From contig QHUK01000010.1 in assembly GCA_003222085.1 (NCBI GenBank), positions 3,688 through 67,687 on the forward strand: DNA of 64,000 nt, read 5' to 3'. The notes under the pieces are model-generated. The model saw only the letters and a list, made by a program, of their open reading frames with translations. It had not been told where the DNA came from and searched no databases. This stretch comes from Gemmatimonadota bacterium. GTDB taxonomy: Bacteria > Gemmatimonadota > Gemmatimonadetes > Gemmatimonadales > GWC2-71-9. Position 1 is the stretch's first letter. The number at the start of each line of letters is the position of its first letter. Positions 8,085 to 37,358 of this stretch are shown here, piece by piece. The position numbers were made by a program, and so were the translations under genes.

Positions 8085-8166
8085 GTCATCCGTCGACCGT
8101 CATCTGTCGTCCGTGGGACCGAGAGCAGGGGAAGACACGGATGACGGATGACTGAAGACGGATGAC
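8085..8166. repeat. Long imperfect hairpin built from heptamer arrays (CATCCGT x4 / ACGGATG x4)
   Basis: The left arm is gtcatccgtcgaccgtcatctgtcgtccgtg (8085-8115). The right arm is cacggatgacggatgactgaagacggatgac (8136-8166). The loop is 20 nt. The element exactly fills the gap between the convergent OCD-like and PiT genes. Confidence 0.75.
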
Positions 8167-11542: not shown

Positions 11543-11645
11543 CACGACGCCACGACGCCACGACGCTACGACGGACAGTCAACGCCGGGACCGCGGCAAC
11601 TCGCGCTACCCCTTGCCGTCGTGACGTCGTCACGTCGTTGCGTCG
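11543..11645. repeat. Long imperfect hairpin built from octamer arrays (CACGACGC x3-4 / inverted)
   Basis: The left arm is cacgacgccacgacgccacgacgctacgacgg (11543-11574). The right arm is ccgtcgtgacgtcgtcacgtcgttgcgtcg (11616-11645). The loop is about 41 nt. The element starts 6 nt after the zinc-ribbon ORF stop. Confidence 0.7.
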
Positions 11646-12658
11646 CCCTTCCGATTCTCGACGAGCGTCTTCGCGGCACCAAGTTCGTCTCGCTCGAAGC
11701 GAAGTCCGTCCTCAACTCGCCGCTGCAGACCGGCGTCGATTTCTGGTCGCTCAACCCCTACATCGGGTGCGAATTCGGCTGCACGTATTGTTATGCGCGC
11801 TACGCGCATCGCTATGCGGTGGAGCGAGCCCACGACGCGGGGCGGCTCTCCGACGAGGAGTTTGTGGAGTTCCGCGGACCGCACGGCTGGGAGGCGTTCG
11901 AGCAGCGTGTGTTCGTGAAGCACCAGCTGCTGGGCGCCCTGGAAGGCGATTTGCGCCGCTACTGGCGGTCCCTCGGTCCGACTGCCCGCCCGGCCACCCC
12001 CATCGTCATCGGCACCGCGACCGATCCGTACCAGCCGGCCGAGCGGCGGTTCCGGCTCACGCGAGGGATTCTCGAGCGGCTGGCGCGCTGCGAAGGGTTG
12101 AACATCGGCATCATCACCAAGAGCCCGCTCATCGCGCGCGACACCGACGTGCTGCTGCGCCTTCAGGAGCGCAGCGATCTCGAGGTCCACATCTCCCTCA
12201 CCACGGTGGACGTGGCGCTGATCCGGCAGGTCGAGGCGCGCTCCCCGATACCGGCGGTACGGCTCCGGGCGCTCAAGCGACTCGCCGACGCGGGCGTACG
12301 TGTGGGCTTGATCGTCGCGCCGGTCCTTCCGGGGATCACCGATGACCTACCCCATCTGGAAGCGCTCTTCCAGGCGGCACGGGAGGCCGGCGCCAGGTTC
12401 GTGCATGCCGGTCCGCTGCGTCTCTACTCCGCGGTGCGGGACCGCTTCCTCCCGATGCTCGAAGAGCAGTTCCCCCACCTCGTCGCGCGCTACCGGCGCG
12501 CGTACGAGGGCCGGAGCGGGGCGCCGCGCGACTATGCGCGCGCACTGGCCGCGCGCATCCAGAAGCTGCAAGCGCGATTCGGATTTCCGGTGAAGGAGGG
12601 GATGGCCGATCGCTGCGGGCGACGGCTGGCACCGGCGCAGCAAGAGCTCGGATTGTGA
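11621..12658 (+). CDS. Radical SAM protein (COG1533 / SplB-like 'DNA repair photolyase' family)
   Basis: It has the CxxxCxxC cluster 'NPYIGCEFGCTYCYARY'. The start is uncertain. I prefer the GTG at 11621 because upstream candidates (11537, 11465) would translate the octamer hairpin and overlap the micro-ORF. Confidence 0.8.
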   Translation: MTSSRRCVALPILDERLRGTKFVSLEAKSVLNSPLQTGVDFWSLNPYIGCEFGCTYCYARYAHRYAVERAHDAGRLSDEEFVEFRGPHGWEAFEQRVFVKHQLLGALEGDLRRYWRSLGPTARPATPIVIGTATDPYQPAERRFRLTRGILERLARCEGLNIGIITKSPLIARDTDVLLRLQERSDLEVHISLTTVDVALIRQVEARSPIPAVRLRALKRLADAGVRVGLIVAPVLPGITDDLPHLEALFQAAREAGARFVHAGPLRLYSAVRDRFLPMLEEQFPHLVARYRRAYEGRSGAPRDYARALAARIQKLQARFGFPVKEGMADRCGRRLAPAQQELGL

Positions 12659-12662
12659 CGGC

Positions 12663-13082
12663 TCAGGCGACTTCGCTCGCCGCTTTGCCCCGGCGCGGCT
12701 GGTAATGCCGCACCAGATCCTGTACCCAGCGAGGGGGGGAGAGCCGACGCGCCTCGTACGAGTCGACGAGCAGCCCGGCGAGAGCCCGTCCCAAGTCGAG
12801 CGTGTGCTCGGGGGAGAGGTCAACCGACAGCTCGTTCAGCAGGCGGACGAACTGACCCACGTTCGGCGGTCGCGTGACCTTGCCCTGAGCGGCGAGCCAG
12901 CGCTCTAACCTGATTCGGGTGACGCTGCGGGGAAGCGCTCCGATCAGAAAGCCGCGCAGCCCGTTGGGGCTCATGCCCACTTCGCGGGCGACGCGCCGCA
13001 GCGAGGAACGCGCCGCCTCGCGCGCAAGTCCGTCCCGCAGCAATGGCACCGGGAGGGTGGGAACGGCCGAGCCAGCGGTCAC
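12663..13082 (-). CDS. Hypothetical HTH-containing protein, paralog 1 of a tandem array
   Basis: The 139 aa protein has the HTH-like segment 'SLRRVAREVGMSPNGLRGFL'. It is roughly two-thirds identical by eye to the 13414-13836 product, and both share the C-terminus 'RRGKAASEVA'. Confidence 0.6.
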   Translation of the reverse strand: MTAGSAVPTLPVPLLRDGLAREAARSSLRRVAREVGMSPNGLRGFLIGALPRSVTRIRLERWLAAQGKVTRPPNVGQFVRLLNELSVDLSPEHTLDLGRALAGLLVDSYEARRLSPPRWVQDLVRHYQPRRGKAASEVA

Positions 13083-13105
13083 GTGACGCCCGGGGACGGG
13101 GCGCG

Positions 13106-13354
13106 CTAACGCGCCCGCTTCCGCCCGTAGTAGGCGATCAGCTGTCGGACCCAGCCCGGGACTTTTCCTTGCTTTGCGCGGTACGCGTCTCGTAACAGGT
13201 CCGCAATGCCGCGGCCCAGCACGACGCCGTCGTGCGAGCCAACCCCGGTGCTCAGCGCCTCTACCAGGCGGACGATTTCCGCGGCCTTGGGAGACGCGGT
13301 CCGCTTGCCACGCTTAGTCGCCACGTCAGCACGCTTCGAAGAGGAACTGCACAA
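13106..13354 (-). CDS. Hypothetical protein resembling the C-terminal module of the flanking paralogs
   Basis: In the 82 aa protein, 'IVRLVEAL...LGRGIADLLRDAYRAKQGKVPGWVRQLIAYY' parallels 'FVRLLNEL...LGRALAGLLVDSYEARRLSPPRWVQDLVRHY' of paralog 1. Confidence 0.5.
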   Translation of the reverse strand: MCSSSSKRADVATKRGKRTASPKAAEIVRLVEALSTGVGSHDGVVLGRGIADLLRDAYRAKQGKVPGWVRQLIAYYGRKRAR

Positions 13355-13413
13355 ACTTCACAAGAAGATGTAGCGCATGCGCACCGGGGTCGCAAGGCCC
13401 CTGGGAACTCACC

Positions 13414-13836
13414 CTAAGCGACTTCGCTGGCCGCTTTGCCCCGGCGCACCCGGTAATGCCGGAGCAATTCCTGCACCCAGCGAGGTGGGGACAGCCGGCG
13501 CGCCTCGTACGCGGCGGCGAGCAGCCCCGCGATGTCGCCTGCGAGTGCCGCCGTCTGCTGGGTGGAGAGGTCGCCCGCCAGCTCATTCAGCAACCGCACG
13601 AGCTGACCGACGTTGGGGGGCCGGCTGACGCGCTGTCGCGCGGCGAGCCAGCGCTCGAGCTTGACGCGGGTGGCGCTGCGGGGCACCGAGCCGTTGAGGA
13701 AGTTCCGCAGACCGTTGGGACTGATGGAGATCTCGGTTGCGGCGCGCCGCAAGGACAACCGGGCGGCCTCCCGCCCGACGGCGTCACGCAGTACGGGAAC
13801 CGGCAGCGTGGGAACGCCCCGGCTGCTAGCGCTCAC
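13414..13836 (-). CDS. Hypothetical HTH-containing protein, paralog 2 of a tandem array
   Basis: The 140 aa protein has the same architecture as the 12663-13082 product. Nucleotide similarity is clearly visible at the 3' ends (…gacttcgct.gccgctttgccccggcgc…). Confidence 0.6.
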   Translation of the reverse strand: MSASSRGVPTLPVPVLRDAVGREAARLSLRRAATEISISPNGLRNFLNGSVPRSATRVKLERWLAARQRVSRPPNVGQLVRLLNELAGDLSTQQTAALAGDIAGLLAAAYEARRLSPPRWVQELLRHYRVRRGKAASEVA

Positions 13837-13885
13837 GGGAGCCGTGCACTTTGTGCGGTATTGCAGGCCTTACACGGGAAATAGC

Positions 13886-14893
13886 CTAGCTCGAGTCGGG
13901 AAAGCTCGCAAGCGTGCCGACGCTCCCCCCCCTCTCTGCCATCATCTCCACGAGCGCCCGGATGGTCCCCGGCGCGTTGCCCTCGAGCCGGTTGTTCACG
14001 AGGATCAGCGCCTCCAAATGGCGCCGCATGACCTCGGCGACCAGGCGCCGCAGATCGTGTCGCACCTCCGGCTGGGGATCGCGGATGCGGTCGTAGGGCT
14101 CGAACAGCCTTACCGCGTCGGCGTACGCCCGCCCGGGGCGGAGCAGCGCGCGCGCCACGGTGAAGCCGGCGGGGAACGCCCACGGCAGCTCGAGCTGCTC
14201 GCCGATCGCCGGCATTTCGTTCCACGAATTGAACACATGGGCCACCCCGTGCCGCGCCAGCACCGCACCGTGGGCGTCGGTCAAGAGCTCCCGGTTCCGC
14301 AGCTCCACCGCGTAGCGGAAGTCGCGGGGCAGTCGCCGCAGGAAGCCGTCGAGCTCCTCCGCCCACCTGGCCGCCTCGGGGAGATCATGCCCTCGCATCG
14401 CCTGAAACTCGAACACGAAGGCGCCGGCATGGTCCGAGAACGCCCGCGCGTACGGCCCGAGCACTGCCTCCTTGAAAAGATCAGCGTTCAAGAAGTCGGG
14501 GTTCCGCTGACCCGCGAGGTTGCCCCAGCGCGGGTCCTGCGTGAAGCGCCGCGCCGTGATCCGATCCCACACCTTGCTCACGCACGGAAAGCCGGGGGGC
14601 AACGCCCGCGCGTACGCCGTGAGCACCTCTTCTGACGGCGGCTCGTAGAACGCGCTGTCGATCCCCACCGTGCGGAACAAGGGATAGCGCACGTACTCCT
14701 CGAGCCGACGGGCCGGCTGGGCGCTGCGATAGGGCCGATGATAGACCTCGCCCGCCCAGCCGTCGTACGTCCACGTGGAGGTACCGAACCGAATGGACGG
14801 CGGGATGTGTTGGGCGAGCGAGATCAGGGCGGCGGGCGGTGCAGGCAGCGCGGCGACATCGTCGAAGAGATTCGGCTGATCACGCCTGGACAT
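13886..14893 (-). CDS. DUF72 (UPF0759) family protein
   Basis: The N-terminal 'IRFGTSTWTYDGWAGEVY' signature and the roughly 335 aa length fit the family. Confidence 0.75.
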   Translation of the reverse strand: MSRRDQPNLFDDVAALPAPPAALISLAQHIPPSIRFGTSTWTYDGWAGEVYHRPYRSAQPARRLEEYVRYPLFRTVGIDSAFYEPPSEEVLTAYARALPPGFPCVSKVWDRITARRFTQDPRWGNLAGQRNPDFLNADLFKEAVLGPYARAFSDHAGAFVFEFQAMRGHDLPEAARWAEELDGFLRRLPRDFRYAVELRNRELLTDAHGAVLARHGVAHVFNSWNEMPAIGEQLELPWAFPAGFTVARALLRPGRAYADAVRLFEPYDRIRDPQPEVRHDLRRLVAEVMRRHLEALILVNNRLEGNAPGTIRALVEMMAERGGSVGTLASFPDSS

Positions 14894-15039
14894 TAGAAGT
14901 TGAAATATATCAATAGCTTACCATCGAAGTAACGGGCCTTGCGATGTCCTTGATCTTCGGGATATATTCGGGTCCCATTTACTACCCGACAATGCCAAAA
15001 ACTCCCCACCTGACGAGCGAGTCCGCGGCTTGCTGTTGG

Positions 15040-16284
15040 ATGCCGCTGTTCGCGTTGCGCTCCGAACTGGCGCGGCGGCCCGAACTCGCGTCCCACCCCG
15101 TGGCGCTCGTCGCACCCGACACCGCTCGCACCCCTCGGGTGTGGCAGGTCGTGCCGCTCGCCCGGCACGCCGGGGTGAAGCCGGGAATGACGGTCAGCCA
15201 GGCGATCGGACTCTGTCCCGCGCTCAAGCTGTGCGAGCCCGACCCGGTGCATTACGACGAGCAGTTCGAGCAGCTCATCGCTGCACTTGCCGTGGTAAGC
15301 CCCGTCGTGGAGCCGGTGGAGTTGGGGCGGGTGTTCGTGGGCACCGACGGATTGGAAGGGCTGTACGGAGGGCCGGAGGAGATCGTCGAGGCGATCAAAC
15401 GCGGAACGCGGAAGTGGGAACGCGGAACAGGCGAGCGATCTTCCAGCCCCTGTTCCGCGTTCCGCGTTCCGCGTTTCGCGTTTCGGGTGGGCTGGGGCCG
15501 CGGGAAATTCGTTTCCTGGGTGGCCGCGACCCGCGCAAAACCCGGAGCTGCGGTCATAGTGCCGGTGGGAGGGGAGGCGAAGTTTCTCGCTTCCCAGCCG
15601 CTCGCCGTGCTCCCGCTCGACCCCGACACACATCGCCGGCTGCAGCAGCTCGGCGTCAAGACGCTGGGCGCGCTCGTCGCGCTTCCGGAGGAAGCCGTCG
15701 TGTCGCAATTCGGTGGCCCGGGCCGGCGGCTGTGGCGGCTCGCGGCGGGACTCGTGTCGGAGCCGGTGGTGGGACGGGTCGTGCCCGAGCCGATCGTGGC
15801 CGCTCTCACGTTTTTCACCCCGGTCGGCGAGCGGGACCTGCTCGCCCACGCACTGGACAAGCTCGTCGACCGCGCGCTCGGAGATCCGCGTCGCAGCGGC
15901 TGGCGCGTGCAGGTCGTCCGGGTGCGCGCCGAGCTCGAGCACGGCGCCTCCTGGCTCGTCACCGCGACCCTCAAAGACCCATCCGCGACGCGGGAGCACA
16001 TCGCGGCACCGCTCAAGACGCAGCTCGAGCGGTCGCCGCCCGTCGGTGCGGTCGAGCGGCTCGTCGTCGAGTTTACCGCCTTCGCTCCCGGCACCGCCGA
16101 GCTGCAGCTGTTCGCGCATGATGCGAGCGCCGCGGCTCGCGCCGGGCGACGGCGTGCGCTCCAAGGCGCCGCCCGGGAGATCGCGCTCCGAATCAGACGG
16201 CCGATGCTGTATCACGTCATCGAGGTGCAGCCATGGTCCCGCCTTCCCGAGCGGCGGTACGCGCTGATCGACTATGAACCGTGA
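15040..16284 (+). CDS. imuB: ImuB-like Y-family DNA polymerase homolog (mutasome subunit)
   Basis: 'MPLFALRSELARRPELASHPVALV...ARHAGVKPGMTVSQA' is the typical ImuB N-terminus, and the gene lies directly upstream of dnaE2. The ATG at 15040 is chosen over the listed 14944 start. There is a possible clamp-binding 'LQLF'. Confidence 0.8.
   Translation: MPLFALRSELARRPELASHPVALVAPDTARTPRVWQVVPLARHAGVKPGMTVSQAIGLCPALKLCEPDPVHYDEQFEQLIAALAVVSPVVEPVELGRVFVGTDGLEGLYGGPEEIVEAIKRGTRKWERGTGERSSSPCSAFRVPRFAFRVGWGRGKFVSWVAATRAKPGAAVIVPVGGEAKFLASQPLAVLPLDPDTHRRLQQLGVKTLGALVALPEEAVVSQFGGPGRRLWRLAAGLVSEPVVGRVVPEPIVAALTFFTPVGERDLLAHALDKLVDRALGDPRRSGWRVQVVRVRAELEHGASWLVTATLKDPSATREHIAAPLKTQLERSPPVGAVERLVVEFTAFAPGTAELQLFAHDASAAARAGRRRALQGAAREIALRIRRPMLYHVIEVQPWSRLPERRYALIDYEP
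15397..15486. repeat. GGAACGC-type heptamer hairpin element inside imuB
   Basis: The left arm is ggaacgc ggaagtg ggaacgc ggaacag. The loop is 17 nt. The right arm is cctgttcc gcgttcc gcgttcc gcgtttc gcgtttc. The ORF stays open and reads KRGTRKWERGTGERSSSPCSAFRVPRFAFRV. Confidence 0.8.
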
Positions 16285-16582
16285 ACAAACGCGGAAGTTG
16301 GAGCGCGGAACGCGGAACAATGCGGACAGGCTTCGGGCGCTCAACGTTCAGCAGCAGGTGAAGGTCGATCTGGATGACGGTGGAGTGCCGGTAGTCGTGA
16401 CACGGGAAACGGGAGATGGGAAACGTGTTGAGTCGATCGGTGAGACGTGGCGGATCGATGATGAATGGTGGCGATTGCCTATTGTGCGGCGATATGTGGA
16501 AGTGATTCTCGAAGGTGGCGGGCGGGTTGTGTTGTTCGAAGATCTGTCGACGGGCGAGTGGTGGATCCAGAAGCCCGCCTGA
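16274..16582 (+). CDS. Small ORF between imuB and dnaE2 with a 'WRIDDEWWR' motif (possibly a DUF6504-like ImuB-associated domain)
   Basis: The 102 aa ORF ends '...GETWRIDDEWWRLPIVRRYVEVILEGGGRVVLFEDLSTGEWWIQ'. It overlaps the imuB stop in the +1 frame. Its first ~20 codons are repeat-derived, so the true start is uncertain. The family assignment is from memory. Confidence 0.55.
   Translation: MNREQTRKLERGTRNNADRLRALNVQQQVKVDLDDGGVPVVVTRETGDGKRVESIGETWRIDDEWWRLPIVRRYVEVILEGGGRVVLFEDLSTGEWWIQKPA
16287..16320. repeat. GGAACGC-type heptamer array (left arm of a split pair)
   Basis: The sequence is aaacgc ggaagtt ggagcgc ggaacgc ggaacaa. It lies immediately after the imuB stop. Confidence 0.75.
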
Positions 16583-16617
16583 ACGTTCCGCGTTCCGACT
16601 TCCGCGTTCCAACTTCC
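16583..16617. repeat. GGAACGC-type heptamer array, inverted (right arm of a split pair)
   Basis: The sequence is acgttcc gcgttcc gacttcc gcgttcc aacttcc. Its reverse complement, ggaagtt ggaacgc ggaagtc ggaacgc ggaacgt, matches the 16287-16320 arm. It fills the whole spacer between the small ORF stop and the dnaE2 ATG. Confidence 0.75.
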
Positions 16618-19600
16618 ATGTACGTCGAGCTCCACTGCCACTCCGCTTTCTCGTTCCTCGACGGCGCCTCGCTCCCCGAGCAGCTCGCGCTCACCGCGTC
16701 GCAGCTCGGCTACCCCGCGCTCGCGCTCACCGACCACAACGGCCTGTACGGCTCGATGGCGTTCGCGCAAGAAGCGAAACAGCTCGGCATCCAGGCGATC
16801 ACCGGCGCGGAGCTGACCCTACTCGACGGCTCTCACGTGACGATTCTCGCGGAGACGCCTGAGGGGTACGCGAACCTCTGCCGGTTGATTACGGAGGCTC
16901 ATCTCGGTCGTGAAGACCGGCGCGACCCGCGGCTCGATTTCGCCTCGCTCGAAGCCCGGCACGCAGGGCTCATCGTGCTGTCGGGATGCCGCAACGGGCT
17001 GCTCCCTCAGGTGCTGCGGCGCGACGGCCCGGCCGCTGTCCGTCGCGTCGCCGAGCGGTGTCGTGCGGTGTTCGGGAAGGACAACTTTGTCGTCGAGCTG
17101 CAGCGCAATTATGTACGGGGCGATCTGGCCCTGACCCGGGCGCTGAAAGCCCTCGCGGACGACGCGCAGCTGGGCGTCGTGGCGTCGGGCAACGTGCATT
17201 ATCACGCCCGCCCGCGTCACCGTCTGCACGACGTGCTGGTGGCGATCCGGCACCGCACCACGCTCGACGGCTCGCACGACGTGCGGCATGCGAACAGCGA
17301 GTTCTTCCTGCGCCCGCACGAAGAGGTCGAGGCGCTGTTTCGTGACTGTCCGAATGCTGTCGCTAATACTCTAGCCCTGGCGGAGCGCTGCCGGGGGTTC
17401 GATCTCACGCGGGATCTGGGATATCGGTTTCCCGATTTCAACGGCGCCGAGCGCGCCCCCGCCCCGCGAGCGCTCGCCGAGCTGTGCCGGGCGAGACTGG
17501 AAGAGCGCTACCCTCCGGATTCCCCCCACCGCGACGCCGCGGAGCGGCGGCTCGCCGAGGAGCTGCGGCTGGTCGAGCACCATGCGCTCTCGGGGTTCTT
17601 TCTCGTCTATCACGACCTGTTCGACCTGGCCCGGGAAGTCGCCGTCGACGTGCGGCGCGGCTCGCGGCGGGCGCAGGGCGGCCTGCTCCCCGGTCGCGGT
17701 CGCGGCTCATCGGTCTCCTCCGTCGTGTGCTACCTGCTCGGCCTCTCGCACATCGACCCGGTCGCGACCCGGCTGTTCATCGGGCGGTTCCTGAGCGAGA
17801 CCCTCGCCTCGGTGCCGGACATCGACCTCGATTTCCCGCGCGAGATCCGCGAGGAGCTGATCCGGCGGGTGTACAAGCGGTACGGCGACGAGCACGTCGG
17901 GCTCGTCTGCTCGTTCCCCACCTATCGCCTGCGCTCGACGGTGCGGGAGATCGGCAAGGCGCTCGATCTGCCGCCGGGCGAGATCGAGCAGGTCGCGAAA
18001 CTGGCGGACCGGCGATCCGGCGGACTGGCGGACGAATTGGACCAGCTTCCCGGATTCGCGGGGCGACGGAGCGCGCCGCTCTGGAAAGAGCTGTGCGAGC
18101 TCGCCGAGGAGATCGCGGGGCTGCCGCGGCACATTTCCCAGCACGTGGGCGGGATGGTCATCTCGAGCCGGCCGCTCGTGGAGATCGTGCCGCTCGAGCG
18201 CGCCGCCATGGAAGACCGGGTGGTATGCCAGTGGGACAAGGATGCCTGCGACGACGCACGCTTCATCAAGATCGACTTCCTGGCGCTCGGCATGCTGTCG
18301 CTCGTGGAAGAGTGTGTCGAGCGGATCGCCGTGCACCAGGGAGCGCCACCCGACCTCTCGCGCATCGACTTCGAGGACCCCGCGGTGTACGACCGCATCT
18401 GCCGGGGCGACACGGTTGGACTGTTCCAGATCGAGAGCCGGGCGCAGATCCAGATGATCCGTCGCACCCGACCCACCAACCTCGAAGACCTGGCGGTCGA
18501 GGTCGCGATCGTGCGGCCCGGCCCGATCGTGGGAGGAGCGGTGAACCCGTACGTGCGACGCCGCGAGGAGCAGCGCCGCGCCCGGGCCGCCGGTCGCGCC
18601 TACGAGCCGCCGCTCGAGCATCCCCTGCTCAAGGAAGCGCTCGACGAAACGCTCGGCGTGATCCTCTATCAGGACCAGGTGCTGCAGGTGTGCCAGGCGC
18701 TCGCCGGATTCACGGCGGGCCAGGCCGAGGCCTTGCGGCGGGCGATGAGCCGGCGGCGCAGCCGCGAGTTGATGGCGGGGTTCTGGGAGGAGTTCAAGGA
18801 GGGCGCGGCGGCGCGCGGCGTCCCCGAGCAGACAGCAGAGCGCGTGTTCACACAGGTGATCGCGTTCTCGGAGTTCGGTTTCCCCAAGTCGCACGCCGCG
18901 GCGTTCGGCCTGCTCGCCTACCAGTCGGCGTGGCTCAGGCATTATCACCCGGCCGAGTACTATTGCGCCCTCTTCAACAACCAGCCGATGGGGTTCTACT
19001 CGCTCGACGCGCTGGGACGCGATGCCCAGCGGAACGGCGTCGAGATCCGGCTGCCGGATGTGAATCTGAGTGACGTATGGAGCACGATAGAGCGGGAAAG
19101 GGGAAACGGGAAACGGGAAACGGGAGGCGTTCGGATCGGGCTTGGGTTCGTGCGCGACTGGAGCGAGGAGACGGCGACGGCGGTCGTGATCGAGCGCGAG
19201 CGGCGCGGGCCGTACGCGAGTATCGGCGACTTCGTGCGCCGGGCGCCGCCCAAGCTCAAGCGCACCGCGATCGAGCATCTCGTGTGGGTGGGAGGATGCG
19301 ACGGCTTCGGGCTCACCCGGCGCGAGCTCCTGTGGCAGGTGGGGCTGTGGCTGCCTCCGGAATCGGAGCACGGGGTGGACGCGCGCGCACGGCGGCAGCT
19401 CGAGCTGGCGCTCAATCATCCCCACGAGGGACTCCGATTCGGCGGCCTCGAGGCGGCCGAGCGGCTGCTCGCGGAGTATGACGTCCTGGGGTTCGCCGCG
19501 AGCGGCCATCCGCTCTCGCTGCTCCGCGGGGCGCTGCCGCCGGGTATCGTGCAGAGCGACACGCTCCCCCGGCTCGAGCACGGAGCGTGGGTCGAAGTCG

Positions 19601-19953
19601 CCGGGCTGGTGGTCGCGCGCCAGCGACCCGAGACGGCGAAGGGATTCATATTTGTGCTGGTCGAGGATGAGGCGGGGATGGTGAACGTGATCGTGCGGCC
19701 CGACGTGTACGAGCGCTATCGCACCGCGGTCCGCGGCGAGCCGCTCTTGTGGGTGCGCGGTAAGCTCGCCAAGGACGACGGGACGGTGAACGTGATCGCG
19801 GAAGAGGCGAGGGGGCTCAAAGTCGGAACGTGGAACGCGGAAGGCGGAACGGACGGCGGGCCTGCCAGTTCCGCGTTCCCACTTCCGCATTCCGCGTTCG
19901 ACTTTCTTAAGTCCATGCGTCGCCTCGCGCCGGAGTCCAAGGATTGGGGGTAG
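16618..19953 (+). CDS. dnaE2: Error-prone DNA polymerase III alpha-like subunit DnaE2
   Basis: It has the PHP-domain N-terminus 'MYVELHCHSAFSFLDGASLPEQL...LALTDHNGLYG', a length of about 1111 aa, and sits in an imuB-dnaE2 arrangement. Confidence 0.9.
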   Translation: MYVELHCHSAFSFLDGASLPEQLALTASQLGYPALALTDHNGLYGSMAFAQEAKQLGIQAITGAELTLLDGSHVTILAETPEGYANLCRLITEAHLGREDRRDPRLDFASLEARHAGLIVLSGCRNGLLPQVLRRDGPAAVRRVAERCRAVFGKDNFVVELQRNYVRGDLALTRALKALADDAQLGVVASGNVHYHARPRHRLHDVLVAIRHRTTLDGSHDVRHANSEFFLRPHEEVEALFRDCPNAVANTLALAERCRGFDLTRDLGYRFPDFNGAERAPAPRALAELCRARLEERYPPDSPHRDAAERRLAEELRLVEHHALSGFFLVYHDLFDLAREVAVDVRRGSRRAQGGLLPGRGRGSSVSSVVCYLLGLSHIDPVATRLFIGRFLSETLASVPDIDLDFPREIREELIRRVYKRYGDEHVGLVCSFPTYRLRSTVREIGKALDLPPGEIEQVAKLADRRSGGLADELDQLPGFAGRRSAPLWKELCELAEEIAGLPRHISQHVGGMVISSRPLVEIVPLERAAMEDRVVCQWDKDACDDARFIKIDFLALGMLSLVEECVERIAVHQGAPPDLSRIDFEDPAVYDRICRGDTVGLFQIESRAQIQMIRRTRPTNLEDLAVEVAIVRPGPIVGGAVNPYVRRREEQRRARAAGRAYEPPLEHPLLKEALDETLGVILYQDQVLQVCQALAGFTAGQAEALRRAMSRRRSRELMAGFWEEFKEGAAARGVPEQTAERVFTQVIAFSEFGFPKSHAAAFGLLAYQSAWLRHYHPAEYYCALFNNQPMGFYSLDALGRDAQRNGVEIRLPDVNLSDVWSTIERERGNGKRETGGVRIGLGFVRDWSEETATAVVIERERRGPYASIGDFVRRAPPKLKRTAIEHLVWVGGCDGFGLTRRELLWQVGLWLPPESEHGVDARARRQLELALNHPHEGLRFGGLEAAERLLAEYDVLGFAASGHPLSLLRGALPPGIVQSDTLPRLEHGAWVEVAGLVVARQRPETAKGFIFVLVEDEAGMVNVIVRPDVYERYRTAVRGEPLLWVRGKLAKDDGTVNVIAEEARGLKVGTWNAEGGTDGGPASSAFPLPHSAFDFLKSMRRLAPESKDWG
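19094..19128. repeat. GGGAAAC heptamer tandem array inside dnaE2
   Basis: The array is gggaaag gggaaac gggaaac gggaaac gggaggc, translated as ERERGNGKRETGG. A related array, gggaaac gggagat gggaaac, occurs at 16404-16424 in the small ORF. Confidence 0.7.
19825..19899. repeat. GGAACGC-type heptamer hairpin element in the dnaE2 3' coding region
   Basis: The left arm is ggaacgt ggaacgc ggaaggc ggaacgg. The loop is 15 nt. The right arm is gttcc gcgttcc cacttcc gcattcc gcgttc. It shares a 21-nt identical stretch (gttccgcgttcccacttccgc) with the reverse complement of the imuB element arm. Confidence 0.8.
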
Positions 19954-19958
19954 CGGCA

Positions 19959-19986
19959 TTGACATCGTCACGGCGCCGGATAGCCT
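19959..19986 (+). promoter_or_regulatory. Candidate sigma70-type promoter giving a leaderless transcript
   Basis: The layout is TTGACA (19959-19964), 16 nt, then TAGCCT (19981-19986). The ATG of the downstream gene lies 6 nt after the -10 element. Confidence 0.35.
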
Positions 19987-19992
19987 TGCTCC

Positions 19993-21057
19993 ATGCCGAT
20001 CCCCACCGAACCCATTGGCAGCATCCCCAGACCCCCGGAGCTCGTCGCGGGGATGCAGCAGCTCGCCACCGGTCGCCTCACGCGCGACCAGTTCGCCCGA
20101 CTCCAGGACGCGGCGATCCACGACACCATCCGGCGGTTCGAAGCGACCGAGTCCCCCGTCATCACCGACGGTGAGCAGGCGAAACCCAGCTTCGCCACCT
20201 ACCCGATCCACGGGCTCACGAACCTCGCACCCGACGGCGTCACGATCCCGTTCGCCGACGGACACACGCGGCAGCTCCCCCGGCTCACCGCCGGGCCGTT
20301 CCGCTATCAGACGTACGCCGACGCATATCTCGCGAGCGCGCGAGCGCACGCCCACGTGCCCGTCAAACAGGCGGTGATCGCGGCCTCGGCGCTCAGCCTG
20401 CTCTATCCGGAGGACGGCATCACAGGGTATCCGCGCGAAGCGTTTCTCAAGGATCTCGTGCGCGAGGCGGAGACGGACATCCGCCGGTGTCTCGCGAAGG
20501 GTGCCCACGTGGTGCAGCTCGATTTCACCGAAGGCCGGCTCGCGGTGAAGTTCGATCCATCGCTGGGCCTGCTCAGGATGTTCGTGGACCTGAACAATCA
20601 GGTACTCGAGCGCTTCACGGCCGACGAGCGCCGCAGGATCGGCGTTCACACCTGTCCGGGCGGCGACCGGGACTCGACGCACAGCGCGGACGTGGACTAC
20701 GCGGAGCTCCTGCCCACGCTGTTTGAGCTGAAGGCGACGAACTTCTACATCCAGTGCGCGAGTGAGCCGGACCGCGGCAGGGTGCTGCGCCTCATGAAGG
20801 AGCACAGCAAGCCCGGCCAGCGGATTTTCGTCGGCGTGATCGATCCGATCGATCCACGGGTTGAGACGCCCGACGAAGTCCGGGACCGGGTCCTGGAGGC
20901 GGCGGAGTACATCGCGCTCGACCGGCTCGGCACCACCGACGACTGCGGCTTCGCGCCCTTCGGCGACGACACCTCCACCGACCGCGAGACGGCATTCGCC
21001 AAGATCCGCGCACGCGTGGCCGGCACCGCGCTGGCGGCCCGGGCGCTGCGGGCGTGA
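19993..21057 (+). CDS. Cobalamin-independent methionine synthase (MetE C-terminal-like) family protein
   Basis: At 354 aa, '[14 protein letters not shown]' and '...[14 protein letters not shown]...[13 protein letters not shown]' are typical of the COG0620/methionine synthase II family. Confidence 0.7.
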
Positions 21058-21112
21058 TCACGCCTTGCCGCTCAGGCTAACTTTCGCAAGAACGCGGAAA
21101 GGGGATGTGCGG

Positions 21113-21661
21113 ATGCCGCAACGCGAAGTGGCAACCCTCGCCGGCGGGTGCTTCTGGTGTCTGGAAGCCGCCTTCCAGGACTTGAAGGGTGTCGAGAAGG
21201 TTCAGTCGGGCTACGCCGGGGGGCGCGTGGCGAACCCGTCGTACGAGGACGTCTGCACCGGCACCACGGGCCACGCCGAGGTCGTGCAGATCACCTTCGA
21301 CCCCACCGTCGTGTCGTTCAACGACCTGCTCCACATCTTTTTCACGATTCACGATCCGACCACGCTCAACCGCCAGGGCGGGGACGTGGGCACCCAGTAC
21401 CGCTCGGCCGTCTTCTACCACACCCCGGAGCAGAAGACCGTGACGGAGCAGGTCATCAGGGAGCTCGAGGCGGAGCACATCTGGGACGATCCGATCGTGA
21501 CCGAGGTGAAGCCGCTCGAGGCCTTCTATCCGGCCGAGGAGTACCACCGCGACTACTATCGCCGCAACCCGAACCAGGGCTACTGCCGCGCGGTGATCGC
21601 GCCCAAAGTGGCCAAGGTCCGCAAGCTCTATTTCGACAGGCTGAAGCAATCGGCGAATTGA
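21113..21661 (+). CDS. msrA: Peptide-methionine (S)-S-oxide reductase
   Basis: It has the active-site motif '[15 protein letters not shown]' and '[12 protein letters not shown]'. The ATG at 21113 is preceded by AAAGGGGA. Confidence 0.9.
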
Positions 21662-21670
21662 GGAGACACG

Positions 21671-22105
21671 ATGCGCTGGTCGATATTTGCGCTGCTTGTC
21701 GCGGCGCCGGTGTTGGCGGCGGCCCAGGCGCCGCCCGCCGGCGCGAGTGAGCCGTTCGTGGTGGAGTATTACTACAAGACCCGCTGGGGCTTCGCCGACG
21801 AGTTCATCCGGCTCTTCAAGAAGAACCACTTCCCGGTATTGAAGCGCGAGATCGAGCTGGGGCACATCCAGCGGGTCACCGCGGAGGCACCGAGGTTCCA
21901 CGGGACCGAGGAGGGCCGCTGGGACTATCGCATAACGATCGTGTGGAAGAACGCCGCCGCACCGCACGAGCCGTTCCCCGAGGCGGAGCTCAAGCGCCTG
22001 TTTCCTGACCAGGACACGTTTCGGCGCGAAGAGCAGCGGCGTTTCGAAATCCTCGCCGCGCACTGGGACCTGCCGGTGGTCAGCGTGGATCTGACGCGGC
22101 CGTAA
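21671..22105 (+). CDS. Hypothetical secreted protein
   Basis: It has the signal peptide '[20 protein letters not shown]' and no recognisable family. Its 3' end overlaps the convergent lhr by 26 nt. Confidence 0.5.
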
Positions 22106-25100
22106 AGGCGGGCCGGCTCTTTCCGAGATACGTCCGCACGAGCGGAGCCACGCGCCCGCGCACCAGAGCGGACTTGAGCCGCTCCCGTTCATCCGGCGCG
22201 ACCTCCACCAGGTACCGCTCGCCGCTCCCAGCTCCCTCCTTGATCGCGACGGGGATCCCGTCTCGATACAGGATCCGGTTCGTCGCAACCCCGGCGAGCA
22301 CGTCTCCCGGCGTCACGATCCCTACCAGGTTGAGCGGGTCGGCCCCGCTCACGGCCACCAGCTCCCCGCGGGGCTCCTCGCGCCGCACGCGGCGGAGCAA
22401 CCCCACGGCTTCCGGCAGGGCGTATTGCTCGCCCGAGAACCCGCCCACGAAGCGCCCGCCGCGAATCTCGCCGCGCGCCTCGAGCCGGCGGTACACCCGC
22501 AGGATGTCGCGCCACGGCGTGAGCAATGTCTCGCGCGTCACCAGCCGACGGAACACCACCCCGTAGCGGCGCAGCAGCTGCCACGCGACCGCTTCCGCGA
22601 CGGCCTCTTCCTGGAGCGGCGCTGCCAGGCGCCGCACCCGCGACCATCGCCCCGCCGTCTCGACCCCGAACGGCGCTACACGCCCCCGTCGCCGGAACCC
22701 GCCCCCCCCGATAGGGCGGCGCCGGTCGGACGGCACGAGCAGCGCTCGCAGCCCGGCGAAGCTGTCCGAGGTCACCAGCCCCCACGCGACCAGCTCCCCG
22801 AGTCCCTTCTCGACTTCGGTGCGTAACAGTCCGGTCGCGTTCGTGAGGTCGCCAAAGAACGACGCGCCGCGCTCGTCGAGCGCCTCGAGCACGGCCCGGG
22901 CCGAGTGTGACAGTGACAGGTGCGCTGGATCGGCCTGCACCGTGAGGGACTGCCAGACCACTCCCCGCTCCCTGCGAAACAGCGCAATCGGCGTGGTGCG
23001 AATCGGCCCGGCTTTGTGACCCCCCCCGTTCGACGGCGCCGCCGGCGACAACCGGCCCCAGGCGATCTCCCCGGACAGGCACAGGCCGTCGAGCCACAGA
23101 GGGTCGTAGTCGCCGAGCCGCGCGGGGAGCACGTCCGCCTCCCAGGCCGCCGCCGGCGCCTCGTATCCGTCGAGCAGCTCGAGCACTGCACCAAGCCCGT
23201 CCGGCCCCTCGGCCCGGGCATCGGGTGCGGCGCGCTGCCACTCGAGCAGGAACCGCATGAAGTCCGCCGCGGTGACCGGCTCGATTTCCTGGCGCAGCCG
23301 GTCGAGCGTGTAGCGGTGGATGCGGGCGAGCAGGCGCCGCTCGCACCATTCGAGCTCCACGACGCCGGGAGTGAACCGGCCGCGCAGCACGAAGCCCTCG
23401 TGCTCGAGCGCGCCGAGCGCGAAGTCCACGTCCCCGGCCGGGACGCCCAGCGATCGTGCGATGTCGGCGGCCGTCGTGGGACCGACCGCCTCGAGCCGGC
23501 CGCGCACCAGCTCGCGCACCGCATCCTCGCGCGTCCATACCTTGGCCCGATCTCGTTCCGGCACCACCAGCGGCGGCTCGCACCGAGCTCCCGGGAACAC
23601 CGCCTCCAGCATCGGCAGCCGCTCGGCGGCCACGCACAGGTGCGGGTCGTGCGACAGCATCCCCGCTCGTCCAGCTCTCGCCAGCTCCTCGAAATACCCT
23701 TGCTGTTCCGCGTTCCGCGTTCCGACTTCCGCGTTGGGAATGGCGCCCATCACGAGCAACGCATCGTGCAGCTCGTCGGCGCTCGCGACCTCCGGCCACG
23801 CCTCCTCCTTCACCCGATCAATCGCCGCCTGATCGAGCTTGCCCAGCTCCTCGGCGGTCTTCACGTCAAGGCCGCGCCGTGTGATCACGGCCTGAGTGCG
23901 GCGCTCCTCGAGCGGCGCGTCGTCGAGGAAGGCGTAGGGCTTGGCATTGATCACCTCGTGGGCGAGCGGCGACGGCTCCGTCGTGTCGCGCGCCACGAGC
24001 GTGAACTGTCCCGCCGCCATCCCCTCGAGCACGCCCTTCAGACCCGGGAAGTCCATCGCTTCCAGCAGACAGTCCGCGATGGTCTGCTGCACCAGCGGAT
24101 GGTCGGGAATCTCCCGGTCCCCCACGAGGTTCTCGGGGCACGCGAGCTGGTCGGGGAACACGGCGGCCACCAGGTCCTCCGCGTCCATGCGCTGGAGCGG
24201 CGTGGGCACCTTCTTCCCGCCTCGCGCGCGCAGCACGGCGAGCGCCCGCGTCGCGTTCCAGCGCCAGCGCGAGCCGAACATCGGCGCGTCCAGCATCGCC
24301 TGCACCAGCAGGTGCTCCGCCGTCTCGGGCTTCAGATACTGGAACACGTCCTCGAGCGGGAAGCTGTGCTGGGGCCCGAGCGACAGGACGATCGCGTCCT
24401 CGGTGGCCGCGGCCTGGAGCTCGAAGTTGAAGCTGCGGCAGAACCGCTTGCGGAGCGCGAGTCCCCACGCGCGGTTCACCCGACTCCCGAACGGCGCGTG
24501 CAGCACCAGCTGCATCCCCCCCGCCTCGTCGAAGAAGCGCTCCAACACGAGCGTCTCCTGGGTCGGGGTGACCCCGAGGATCCTCTTCGAGGCCTCGAGA
24601 TACTCGACCATCTGCCGGGCCGCGGCCTCGGGGACGCCCGGGATCTCGCGCGCGAGCCACGTATTCGCCTCGCGGACGTCACCTAGCCGGGCGTCGACGT
24701 CCCGGCGCAGGCGAGACACCTCTTGCGATAGCTCCGGCGTGCGACCCGGCGCCTCCCCCAGCCAGAACGGGATCGACGGGGGCTGGCCCTGGGCGTCCAC
24801 GACGCGCACCTGGCCCGACTCGATCCTCTCGATCCGATACGATCGGTTGCCCAGCTGGAAGATGTCGCCGGGCATGCTCTCGATGGCGAAATCCTCGTTG
24901 AGCGTTCCGACGAAGGTCTCTGTCGGCTCGAGGATAACGCGGTAGTCGCCGATGTCCGGAATCGCCCCGCCCGACGTGAGCGCGGCGAGTCGGGCGCCGC
25001 GCCGCGCGCGCAGCCGGCGATTCACGCCATCGTAGTGGACGTAGGCGCCGCGCCGCCCGCGCCGCGTCGTGAATCCGTCGGCGAGCATCTGCACCACGGC

Positions 25101-26456
25101 GTCGAAGTCCTTGCGCGACACGTCGCGATACGGGTACGCCCCGCGCACCAAGTCGAACAGGCCGTCCTCCTGCCACTCCTCGCACGCCACCGCGGCCACG
25201 ATCTGCTGCGCCAGGATGTCGAGCGGGTGCGCCGGGATGATCAAGCGGTCGAGGCGGCGCTCCCGTGCGGCCCGCACCAGCGCGGCGCACTCGATCAGCT
25301 CGTCGCGCGACAACGGGAACAGCCGGCCCTTGGGAACGGCGGCGAGATGGTGTCCCGAGCGACCTACGCGCTGCAACAGCGTCGCGATCGAGCGGGTCGA
25401 GCCGATCTGACACACCAAGTCCACCGCACCGATGTCGATCCCTAGCTCGAGCGACGCCGTCGCGACCAGCGCCTTGAGCTTTCCCTCCTTGAGCCTGGTC
25501 TCCGCGTCGAGGCGCTTTTCCTTGGAGAGGCTGCCGTGGTGCGACGTCACTTGATCCGCGCCCAGCCGCTCGGAGAGATGCAGCGTCAACCGCTCCGCCA
25601 GCCGGCGCGTGTTCACGAACACCAGCGTGGTGCGATGCTCGAGGATCAGCTGGACCAGGCGCTCGTAGATCTCCTCCCACACCTCGGCCGCCATGACCGC
25701 CTCGAGCGGCGAGGAGGGAATCTCGATCGCCAGGTCGAGCGTGCGGGCGTGGCCGGAGTCGATCACGCTCGGGGCTTGGGACTCGGGGCTGGGGGCTCGT
25801 TTGGTGCCCACCAGAAACTGGGCGATGTCCTCGATGGGCTTCTGCGTCGCCGAGAGCCCGATGCGCTGGAGACGCCGCCCGGCGAGGTGCTCGAGCCGTT
25901 CGAGCGACAGCGCCAGGTGGCTCCCCCGCTTGTCGCGCGCCACGGCGTGGATCTCGTCCACGATCACGGTGCGCACGCCGCGCAGCATCTCGCGGGCGCG
26001 CTCGGACGTGAGGATGAGATAGAGAGACTCGGGCGTGGTGACGAGGATGTGCGGGGGCCGCCGCACCATCTCCTGGCGCTCCGCGCCCGGCGTGTCGCCG
26101 GTCCGCACCAGCGTGCGGATCTCCACATCCGGCAGGCACGATGCTTCCAGCGTGCGGCGGATCTCGGCAAGGGGCTCTGCCAGGTTCTTCTGAACGTCGT
26201 TCGAGAGCGCTTTGAGCGGCGAGACGTACACGACCTGCGTGCCGTCGGTGAGGGTGCCGTCGAGGCCCTGACGCAGCAGTGAATCGATGGCGGCGAGAAA
26301 GGCCGCGAACGTCTTACCGGAGCCGGTGGGCGCGGCGATCAGGGCGTTCCGGCCCGCCTGGATGAGTGGCCACGCGCGCCGCTGTGGCTCGGTGGGCTCG
26401 CGGAATCGCGACCCAAACCAGCGCTCGATGACGGGGTGAAAGCCAGACAACGACAT
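22080..26456 (-). CDS. lhr: Lhr-family ATP-dependent helicase (large DEAD/DEAH-box)
   Basis: It has '[39 protein letters not shown]', 'VIVDEIHA', '[10 protein letters not shown]', and the long C-terminal Lhr extension. The start MSLSGFHPV at 26456 is chosen. Confidence 0.9.
23703..23735. repeat. Solo GGAACGC-type heptamer array inside lhr
   Basis: The array is ctgttcc gcgttcc gcgttcc gacttcc gcgtt. No partner arm lies within about 100 nt. On the minus strand it is translated as [14 protein letters not shown]. Confidence 0.7.
25771..25798. repeat. GGGGCTN heptamer array inside lhr
   Basis: The array is ggggctt gggactc ggggctg ggggctc, translated on the minus strand as ...[11 protein letters not shown]... 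Confidence 0.5.
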
Positions 26457-26475
26457 ACTCAAATATGGCGAAGAT

Positions 26476-27672
26476 TTACCGAAGCAGCGACACCCCTCGC
26501 GCCGCGGCGATCCGCTCGACCGTCTCCCCAATCTTGTTGTTCGGGGTCGACGCGCCCGCGGTCACTCCCACGGTCAGGGGCCCCGCAGGGAGCCACCCGC
26601 TCACGCGCCGCTCCTGCGTGGCCCCCGGAGGGCGGAACCGGATCGTCCCGGCCTCCGGGTCGATGCAGCTCGCATCCTCGATGTGATAGGTCGGCGCCTT
26701 GTCGTGGCAAATGGCGGCGAGGTGCGTCGTGTTGCTCGAGTTGTATCCCCCGATCACGACCATGAGGTCGAGCGGCTCGGCGATGAGCTTCAGCACTGCA
26801 TCCTGACGGTCCTGCGTGGCCGAGCAGATCGTGTCGAACGTGCGGAAGTGCTCGGGCAGCGCGGCCTCACCGTACCGCTGCGCCATGCTCCGCCGGATCT
26901 CGGCCGCGATGGCGAGCGATTCCCCGGAGAGCATCGTGGTCTGATTGGCGACGCCCACGCGGACGAGGTCGCGATCGGGATCGAACCCGGGCGACAACTT
27001 GTCCGCAAAGAGCTCAAGGAACCGCTCCCCGCTCCCCGCTCCCTCGATGTAGGCGCAGACTTCACGCGCTTCCGCCATGTCGCGCACGACGAGGTACTTC
27101 CCGCCCGGGTATTTGGTGACTTGGCTCGAGGTGGCCTTTGTCTCCTCGTGGTAGTACTTGCCGTGGACGACGGCGGTGAACCCGTCCTTCGCGTAGGAGT
27201 CGACGCGCTTCCAGACGTTGAGCACCGATCCGCACGTCGTGTCCACGAGGACGCATCCGACCGCGCGCAGCCGCTCGAAGTCCTTCACGGTGACCCCGAA
27301 GGCCGGAAGAATGACGACGTCCGCGGGGGTGATCCCGCGGAAGTCGAACTCACCTTCGTCCGGCCGGTGCAGGAACTCGACCCCCATGCTCTGCAGCTTC
27401 TTGTTGACGTGCGGATTGTGGATGATTTCGCCGACCAGGAACACCCGCCGCTCGGGGAACTTGGTGCGGGTTTCGTAGGCGTATTCGACGGCGCGGTCCA
27501 CTCCGTAGCAGAACCCGAACTCGCGGGCGAGTTTGAACGTGAGGTCGCCCATCGTGAGGACGTAACCCTGGGCGCGAATGCGATCCACCACGCGGCTGTG
27601 ATAGTCCGCCGTGAGCGCACCCTCGATGTCGCTCTTGAGGCCGAAGCCGCGTCGAAAGTAGGTCTGCTCCAC
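26476..27672 (-). CDS. ispH: 4-hydroxy-3-methylbut-2-enyl diphosphate reductase (long form)
   Basis: It has '[13 protein letters not shown]', 'HNPHVN', '[14 protein letters not shown]' and '[12 protein letters not shown]'. Confidence 0.9.
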
Positions 27673-37335: not shown

Positions 37336-37358
37336 GCGCGTTGCGCGCGGGAGCCGAC

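Follow-up and report, generated by a model that had tools for sequence, protein, structure and literature searches.

What are two inverted arrays of 7-nt repeats doing around a complete gene in a mutagenesis operon? In a 64-kb stretch of Gemmatimonadota DNA (contig QHUK01000010.1 of assembly GCA_003222085.1; hereafter the window), the polymerase genes imuB and dnaE2 are separated by a small open reading frame (ORF), and an array of GGAAYGC-type heptads lies at each of the two junctions. ImuB and DnaE2 form the damage-inducible mutasome behind induced mutagenesis and the evolution of drug resistance in many bacteria. Our analysis revealed that the two arms are kept complementary across several heptad alphabets. 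We tentatively favor the reading that they would form a long-range stem in the messenger RNA (mRNA), which would occlude the dnaE2 start and tie dnaE2 translation to that of the upstream genes. The genes and arms concerned are as follows.

14944..16284, + strand: imuB, catalytically dead Y-family polymerase homologue (Pfam IMS, 4.8e-15)
16274..16582, + strand: the small ORF (sm), 102 aa, conserved beta-rich protein not assigned to a family, in the place of imuA
16618..19953, + strand: dnaE2, error-prone Pol III alpha homologue (Pfam PHP, DNA_pol3_alpha, finger, HHH_6, and OB)
16288..16320, + strand: J1, the left arm, AACGC plus four heptads, starting 4 nt past the imuB stop and supplying small-ORF codons 5-16; found in 60 related loci
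16583..16617, - strand: J2, the right arm, five heptads filling the entire spacer between the small ORF and dnaE2 and ending at the dnaE2 ATG; present in 49 related loci

Direct reading confirmed both arrays of the original prediction, together with their sequences, their complementarity, and the 262-nt gap between them (16321-16582). The left array (16293-16320) reads GGAAGTT GGAGCGC GGAACGC GGAACAA, i.e., (GGAAYGC)4, and the reverse complement of 16583-16617 reads GGAAGTT GGAACGC GGAAGTC GGAACGC GGAACGT, i.e., five heptads. The left arm had been placed at 16287; the array is real, but its heptads begin at 16293, and 16287 takes in the complementary flank AAACGC. The sequence directly preceding the left heptads (ACAAACGC) is, like them, complementary to the right arm. 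The imuB stop codon (TGA) occupies 16282-16284, and the small ORF overlaps imuB by 11 nt at its 5' end (ATGAACCGTGA). As had been proposed, the left arm supplies the N-terminal codons of the small ORF, of which about the first 16 traverse it, and the right arm fills the spacer up to the dnaE2 ATG at 16618, which stands directly 3' of it. An inverted-repeat search aligned the arms in two registers, 16288-16312 with 16584-16608 (25 nt, 92%) and 16293-16318 with 16592-16617 (26 nt, 88%); both mismatches of the first register are G.U on the + strand transcript. Tandem Repeats Finder (TRF) reported period 7 at 16288-16318 and 16584-16610, showing head-to-tail 7-nt units. A three-heptad GGAA pattern (GGAANNNGGAANNNGGAA, at most one mismatch) matched 20 times in the window against 0.11 expected, and none of 100 shuffles reached 20; the heptad arrays are therefore not a product of chance. 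An Rfam scan of 12000-26000 returned only two sub-threshold microRNA-model matches and no curated family at gathering score. The arms are two arrays of four to five GGAAYGC units in opposite orientation, belonging to the class of heptameric simple-sequence palindromes. The operon carries two further copies of the repeat, both compact.

15397..15483, + strand: S1, compact hairpin in imuB, in frame, between the IMS domain and the C-terminal part; + arm 15397-15431, - arm 15449-15483
19820..19906, + strand: S4, compact hairpin in frame near the 3' end of dnaE2, flanked by the OB fold and by the conserved C-terminal tail FLKSMRRLAPESKDWG

The evidence that the junction arms belong together comes from 86 related Gemmatimonadales-like loci (87 with the window), all of them metagenome assemblies or metagenome-assembled genomes (MAGs). 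Mis-assembly of repeats is possible in such material, yet the same architecture recurred in independent JGI, ENA, and GenBank assemblies with reading frames intact. Counts over these relatives are phylogenetically redundant and do not represent independent events. Heptads were typed by protein alignment and a typed classifier, GGAA-only detection missing GGATTGC-type arrays. The heptad changes by lineage, with GGAACGC, GGAATGC/GGAGTGC, and GGATTGC versions and GGGGCGT/AGGACGT in one locus (L073). J1 and J2 never differed in variant, agreeing in 43 of 43 loci (C in 19, T in 22, TT in 2), to which L073 adds its own pair. Concordant and discordant arms numbered 50/2 and 19/4 within the compact hairpins, and between sites of one genome 34/13 for S1-J1, 16/5 for J1-S4, and 11/8 for S1-S4; the S4 variant is unlike the junction arms of the same genome in some relatives (L004, L005). 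In the 38 distinct J1-J2 pairs, the ungapped helices spanned 18-46 nt and together contained 1054 Watson-Crick pairs, 39 G.U, 19 A.C, and 28 other mismatches, and the lean of sense-strand mismatches toward G.U recurred in S1 (71 vs 46). Two mixed-variant S1 hairpins (L046, L051) combine a T-type + arm with a C-type - arm, with three G.U and no A.C in L046.

RNAalifold, applied to 35 distinct sequences, predicted a long-range J1-J2 helix of 23 pairs. In this helix, without phylogenetic correction, 96.8% of cells were paired against 89.4% in shuffles (0/500), and 14 of the 23 pairs had changed on both sides against 5.6 in shuffles (0/500). Slid controls gave 23-50% pairing, and the 96.8% holds across four heptad alphabets. 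Folding of the 376-nt RNA from 16265 to 16640, as the original prediction had suggested, placed the J1-J2 helix in both the minimum free energy and the centroid structure (-150.1 kcal/mol, z -2.26). Complementarity between the upstream segment and the downstream start is kept by compensatory change, with the caveats that the sequences are related, that the arms are linked, and that specificity is lacking within a variant. Arrays at both junctions with RNA pairing that loops out the small ORF had been one of two earlier proposals; the variant concordance, including L073, and the RNAalifold helix make it the best fit. J1 has four units in nearly all loci and J2 four or five, with unit number (4-5) and positions kept down to 53% small-ORF identity. 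The right arm ends 0-12 nt from the dnaE2 start codon in all 49 loci that have it.

In the mechanism that we tentatively favor, all operon arrays would lie on one mRNA, on which the compact imuB and dnaE2 copies would fold locally. J1 and J2 would then be the only + and - arms without a neighboring partner, and would pair with each other because local folding of the compact copies leaves the junction arms partnerless. The resulting long-range stem of 25-34 bp would loop out the small ORF and bury the dnaE2 start, which has no Shine-Dalgarno (SD) sequence. In relatives of the GGAATGC type, in which the called small-ORF start lies inside the left array (MRN..), the stem would also bury the GGAG...AUG in that array from which the small ORF would start. 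Ribosomes finishing imuB would re-initiate at the overlapping small-ORF start and translate through the left arm; this passage would melt the stem and free the dnaE2 start for the ribosome terminating 35 nt upstream. Little DnaE2 would thereby be made, and its synthesis would depend on the translation of both imuB and the small ORF. No SD-like sequence was seen upstream of the dnaE2 ATG in the window, as had been noted, but the proposal that the arm had displaced it did not hold, an SD being absent before dnaE2 in all relatives, arm-less ones included. Since the arm-less relatives also have a spacer of only 3-16 nt between the small ORF and dnaE2, dnaE2 is probably translated by coupling in all relatives.

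Several observations weigh against this mechanism. Within one heptad variant, the J1-J2 pairs of a locus were no better than cross pairs (permutation p 0.19, 0.34), and specific co-variation of the variable triplets (GGC in L003, GTT in the window) was dropped after this test. Duplex energies of a J1 with its own or a foreign J2 did not discriminate by rank, same-variant sequences being near-equivalent and J2 lengths unequal. Within the window, any + arm can pair with any - arm, the energies being similar, and J1 pairs more strongly with the imuB-internal - arm (-57.4) than with J2 (-50.3). J1 and J2 lie about 300 nt apart, and linkage or arm-to-arm gene conversion could be the source of their concordance. 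A strand-specific mutation bias could account for the lean toward G.U, which is modest and does not appear in S4 (23:24). Moreover, at least 10 lineages keep J1 intact with no J2 partner (among them L001, L015, L024-26, L037-38, L055, and L067) and have a hairpin of other heptads at the J2 site; a left arm without a right one is also seen in L019, L057, and L070; J2 occurs without J1 in about seven (L021, L023, L027, L059, and L062 among them); and five loci have no arms at all (L050, L052, L081, L083, L085). The one-armed and arm-less relatives indicate that J1-J2 pairing is dispensable. Finally, GGAAYGC arrays are generic across phyla, as described below. At the right junction of L001, L015, L024-26, L037-39, L056, L058, and L060, a self-contained GGGGAGT hairpin (loop of about 50-60 nt) replaces the GGAAYGC - arm, and self-contained hairpins of GGTGAGT and GGGAGCA occupy the same place in L067 and L071, respectively. 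A structured element before the dnaE2 start thus recurs in relatives with unrelated sequences.

The small ORF is present between imuB and dnaE2 in all 87 loci. The three genes form a co-oriented + strand unit next to duf72 on the - strand, with lhr (-) downstream in the longer loci. The small ORF is an ancestral operon member, older than the arms and not their cargo, because arm-less relatives retain it in the same place. Cassettes with dnaE2 normally contain imuA or imuA' and are LexA-regulated (PMC3919608); neither imuA nor imuA' was found in this cassette (13400-16600 of the window, L001-L086). Database searches returned 370 homologues of the small ORF, a single one carrying the name Gemmatimonadales, and the ORF also occurs in 567 metagenome stretches. 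It matched no entry of Pfam or NCBIfam. Its AlphaFold model is beta-rich (pLDDT 75.6), with the heptad-encoded residues 1-19 below 50 and predicted to be disordered, and a Foldseek search of the Protein Data Bank with this model found no fold match (best E = 0.37). Relatives of 75-102 aa share the core WRIDDEWWR..PIVRRYVEV..GGGRVVLFEDL.TGEWW.QKP. The product may be a new mutasome accessory factor.

How far the arrays are particular to this operon can be read from their distribution. All GGAAYGC arrays of the window are confined to four genes, and the second gene enriched in heptad arrays is lhr. The remaining arrays in and near the operon are listed here.

22080..26531, - strand: lhr, large DEAD-box helicase (orthologues with DEAD, Helicase_C, and WHD_Lhr)
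23703..23735, - strand: single 4-unit GGAAYGC array in lhr, G-rich on the sense strand, in frame, without a local partner arm
25767..25799: (CCCGAGC)~4.7 array in lhr (TRF)
16402..16425, + strand: (GGGAAAC)~3, a second heptad type, in the small ORF, encoding TRETGDGKR (TRF, period 7); in 26 related loci, without a complementary arm
19093..19129, + strand: (GGGAAAC)~5, in frame in dnaE2 (TRF, 4.7 copies, 92% matches); without a partner arm, also in L004

The compact hairpins fold strongly. S1 has 35-nt arms with 89% complementarity and a 17-nt loop (RNA fold -67.1 kcal/mol, z -6.4), and S4 folds at -50.8 kcal/mol (z -4.9). S1 encodes KRGTRKWERGT..CSAFRVPRFAF; most relatives have a copy at the same codon position in other heptad variants, translated as KRGTRNAERGT..SAFPLPRSAF, KCGVRNAECGI..HSALHTPHSAL, or QLRIADCGLRI..ESAIHNPQSAI. 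The lhr array at 23703-23735 showed no local structure (z +0.9), has orthologous arrays in the lhr genes of relatives, and shows trans complementarity to all - arms of the imuB operon mRNA (-49 to -65 kcal/mol). In 821 kb of relatives, GGAA-phased arrays were found almost only at orthologous sites: 101 inside imuB, 60 at the left junction, 49 at the right junction, 37 at the dnaE2 3' end, 36 in lhr, 26 inside the small ORF, and 8 inside dnaE2, with 10 elsewhere, all of another purine-rich type. Period-7 arrays of any unit reached 0.98/kb in imuB-sm-dnaE2 and 0.50/kb in lhr against 0.038/kb in 419 kb of flanks, i.e., about 26-fold and 13-fold. Roughly eight ancestral sites in 9.5 kb underlie these counts, compared with one or two in the flanks, so that the excess is still strong. 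Alignment of the imuB site revealed filled, partial, and empty states with graded arm lengths and no target-site duplication; partial arms occur in L019, L070, and L085, and presence or absence varies at every site. The arrays at the imuB site look as if they grow and shrink in place and are not cut and pasted.

Beyond these relatives, a scan of one genome per species with GGAAYGCGGARNNNGGAAYGCGG yielded at least 120 loci (GC 42-71%) in at least ten phyla plus one archaeal MAG; taxon proportions among the matches listed are not representative. The taxa among the matches listed include Acidobacteriota, Planctomycetota, Verrucomicrobiota, Gemmatimonadota, Chloroflexota, Nitrospirota, Desulfobacterota-type lineages, Bacteroidota, Clostridia, and Cyanobacteria. 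All 120 listed matches are MAGs or uncultured assemblies, two of them from a 'Klebsiella' bin at 67% GC that is probably mis-binned. Fifty-one of these 120 are intergenic-like, 29 lie at ORF ends, and 40 are contained in long open frames, so that dispersed copies near gene ends and within genes are found over the genomes scanned. None of the 120 is in imuB or dnaE2, and one (L167) has lhr similarity elsewhere in its locus. In-frame hosts are PurL (twice, in different phyla), GlnE, IleS, a Ser/Thr kinase, CheR, a molybdopterin oxidoreductase, and an ECF ATPase (L105, L196, L132, L187, L146, L172, L182, L200), from MAGs of Nitrospirota, Planctomycetota, Acidobacteriota, Verrucomicrobiota, and Chloroflexota, and the inserts read like xRNAECGMRN...SAFRIPHSAF. 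By direct reading, GGAAYGC contains no stop codon in any of six frames, and since 7 and 3 are coprime, all frames of an array encode one and the same cyclic peptide. Among the matches listed, 156 of 213 arrays have 4-5 units, and the median hairpin loop measures 45 nt and the longest 167 nt. Other Gemmatimonadales copies flank genes of the gap, glmS, murG, queA, ubiA, and xdh types. The locations of the 120 listed matches in other genes, together with these housekeeping flanks, ruled out a regulon-specific element as a general statement. A search for GGAAYGC strings and their encoded peptides in the searchable literature found no paper.

This breadth bears on the main alternative, which is rather unlikely in our judgment, namely that the arms are tolerated, functionless simple-sequence DNA. 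Slippage, template switching, or palindrome homogenization would have produced them, complementarity would follow from shared origin, linkage, or conversion, and arrays would persist where harm is small, as at junctions, in linkers, and in rarely expressed genes. The spread over at least ten phyla, with arrays located at gene ends or read in frame within PurL, IleS, GlnE, and CheR among others, the copies beside housekeeping genes such as gap, glmS, murG, and queA, and the lack of partner specificity within a variant all agree with this, as do the site-by-site presence and absence, the partial arms, and the missing target-site duplication, which suggest turnover in place. The window also has hairpins of unrelated units between convergent genes (8085-8166 and 11543-11638), and a link between heptamer over-representation and polymerase slippage is drawn in the passage of PMC4692102 that cites Mrazek 2007. 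Against it stand the 26-fold and 13-fold densities over 419 kb of flanks, the conservation of unit number and position to 53% small-ORF identity, the pairing over four alphabets, the mismatch lean to G.U, and the invariable abutment of the - arm on the dnaE2 start. Generic filler resembling repetitive extragenic palindromic (REP) sequences had been named in advance as the outcome that would undo the prediction; arm-less relatives and arrays at unrelated sites in many phyla go that way, whereas the concentration in the operon and lhr does not. Far less credible is capture of the small ORF in the loop of one mobile element, or inversion or excision of a segment bounded by the arms. The inverted repeats do surround a complete ORF and family loops do reach 167 nt, but this explanation, which the original prediction had also entertained, is largely refuted: the small ORF sits in the same place in the five arm-less and in the one-armed relatives, it is inverted or missing in 0 of 87 loci at the assembly level, and the neighbors (DUF72, Meth_synt_2, PMSR, Lhr) include no recombinase or transposase, nor is there a target-site duplication.

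Two further explanations were considered. Binding of a regulator to the GGAA cores, on DNA or on single-stranded RNA (CsrA/S1/Csp-like), would mark a damage regulon of imuB, sm, dnaE2, and lhr, and we consider it improbable. A precedent on DNA is the omega repressor of pSM19035, which recognizes 7-bp heptads in direct and inverted orientation. The 4-nt GGAA core of our arrays is nearly invariant while positions 5-7 vary, the lhr arrays are partnerless, so that a hairpin is not the common denominator, and the two damage-related loci in which arrays are enriched share an upstream motif, TTCGGG-N5-TTCGS. Elsewhere, heptamer repeats beside the recF and recO start codons affect expression in Nostoc (bioRxiv 10.1101/2022.06.06.494920), and a possible role in translational regulation and a binder have been proposed for TAACTGA repeats (PMC4679880). 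This explanation sits poorly with the wholesale swap to GGATTGC, GGGGCGT, GGGGAGT, GGTGAGT, and GGGAGCA at the same sites, which leaves no conserved motif, and with the same arrays beside unrelated housekeeping genes; most copies would be locked in duplex, and no candidate binder was identified. G-quadruplexes (G4), in which four GG tracts at 5-nt spacing would form a two-tetrad structure in DNA or RNA, are very improbable; such structures have been proposed for the G-rich heptamers GGGAATC in Xanthomonas and GGGGAYT in Nostoc, which prefer about four units, lie near gene ends, and are sometimes inverted (Rehm 2015, PMC4692102). The preference for four to five units is shared, and in the unpaired copies (lhr, sm-internal, and dnaE2-internal) it is the sense strand that is G-rich; yet the tracts are GG only with 5-nt loops, and most arrays have a fully complementary C-rich arm, the duplex being far more stable at -50 to -67 kcal/mol.

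A broader and more speculative proposal, which we regard as doubtful, is that GGAAYGC palindromes constitute an undescribed pan-bacterial family translatable in every frame inside conserved proteins (PurL, IleS, GlnE, ImuB, DnaE2, and Lhr), and that their more than 25-fold pile-up in the mutasome operon and lhr is not accidental. They would then be either a recruited post-transcriptional layer of local and long-range RNA duplexes, controlling damage genes that have an upstream motif in common, or footprints of slippage and template switching, conceivably made at these loci by the ImuB-DnaE2 machinery itself. The lineage in which arrays have accumulated at fixed sites in imuB, at the small-ORF junctions, at the dnaE2 3' end, and in lhr is soil Gemmatimonadales-like.

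The arrays were compared with several known systems. Heptameric tandem repeats with a four-unit preference have already been described, and it is the palindromic GGAAYGC form that is little described. Like the published heptameric arrays, ours consist of tandem G-rich 7-nt units, about four in number, dispersed near starts and stops and sometimes in inverted pairs; unlike them, the GGAAYGC array is usually a near-perfect palindrome found in frame in conserved proteins across many phyla, with copies concentrated in one operon and one pair split by a whole ORF. Copies inside genes are shared with Geobacter metallireducens, whose 4 x GGACCGG elements are found at 49 sites between and within genes (Aklujkar 2009, PMC2700814). 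The cyanobacterium Calothrix PCC7601 also has tandem heptanucleotides, cited in a passage of PMC4692102. REP/BIME and REPIN elements are mobilized by RAYT transposases and carry a GTAG or CGTC tag (PMC3733652). GGAAYGC arms resemble REPs, which are thought to affect mRNA stability or termination, in being short dispersed palindromes at gene ends. REPs are tagged, extragenic, imperfect palindromes of 20-40 nt, whereas the GGAAYGC arms are heptad-periodic and also intragenic, with no RAYT gene nearby. No REP or REPIN tag was present at the arm ends (ACAAACGC / GGAACAA and ACGTTCC / AACTTCC), and copies lie inside imuB, dnaE2, and lhr. A miniature inverted-repeat transposable element was ruled out by the graded arm lengths and the lack of target-site duplication at the imuB site.

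The palindromic elements of Rickettsia (RPEs), reportedly described by Ogata and colleagues in 2000, are said to be selfish palindromes that lie in frame within protein-coding genes. Mention of RPEs is made in PMC1779305. Like them, GGAAYGC hairpins are palindromes of about 85-150 nt that sit in frame in a linker or surface region of an otherwise conserved protein and add a translated peptide to it; S1, S4, and the copies in PurL, IleS, and GlnE are all translated in-frame palindromes, a functional analogy only, and one between different taxa. RPEs are without short tandem units and restricted to Rickettsia, whereas the GGAAYGC family crosses phyla and has 7-nt periodic arms with apparent growth and shrinkage in place. 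For the coupling mechanism, the closest parallels are E. coli rpmI-rplT and the coat-replicase junction of phage MS2 ('Min Jou'), in which long-range RNA pairing couples translation of adjacent cistrons. As in those systems, a segment of the upstream cistron would pair with the downstream start region, and in them the downstream gene is translated only when ribosomes cross the upstream segment. Unlike in those systems, the arms here are generic repeats, and an entire ORF would lie in the loop.

Several additional features of the window were recorded. A motif shared by the imuB and lhr upstream regions (TTCGGGATATATTCGG / TTCGGTAAATCTTCGC) lies at 14956-14971 (+) and 26468-26483 (-) and is kept at both sites in relatives. 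As a statistically supported operator it was rejected, its count in the window being at chance (4 vs 3.9 expected) and its support being conservation in relatives only; imuB and lhr may share it as the promoter or operator of a damage regulon. The true imuB start is probably the in-frame ATG at 14992 rather than the annotated ATG at 14944, because this conserved promoter-like motif sits between the two. The hairpin at 8085-8166 is armed with GTCATCC/GGATGAC heptads (-53.8 kcal/mol, z -6.6) and that at 11543-11638 with a period-8 repeat (CACGACGC / CGTCGTCA); since their units are unrelated, repeat-built hairpin arms are a general habit of this genome. Long tandem repeats of 90/180 nt at 36471-38453, encoding aspartate-rich DGDGV..D.CP-like units that resemble thrombospondin type 3 by eye, are unrelated to the arms.

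If the arms are merely tolerated repeats, they urge caution against reading regulatory meaning into complementary pairs of generic repeats. The repeat family crosses phyla, reads through every frame, sits in housekeeping proteins, and is apparently absent from Rfam and from searchable papers. It bears on the origin of simple-sequence palindromes, on the evolution of protein linkers, and on gene calling in metagenomes, in which it can yield N-terminal extensions and spurious peptides such as MRNAECG. To our knowledge, the balance of mutasome subunit synthesis is poorly known beyond a few models. If the favored mechanism is true, a 25-34 bp stem that encloses a cistron and hides a polymerase start would be a simple, testable coupling device.

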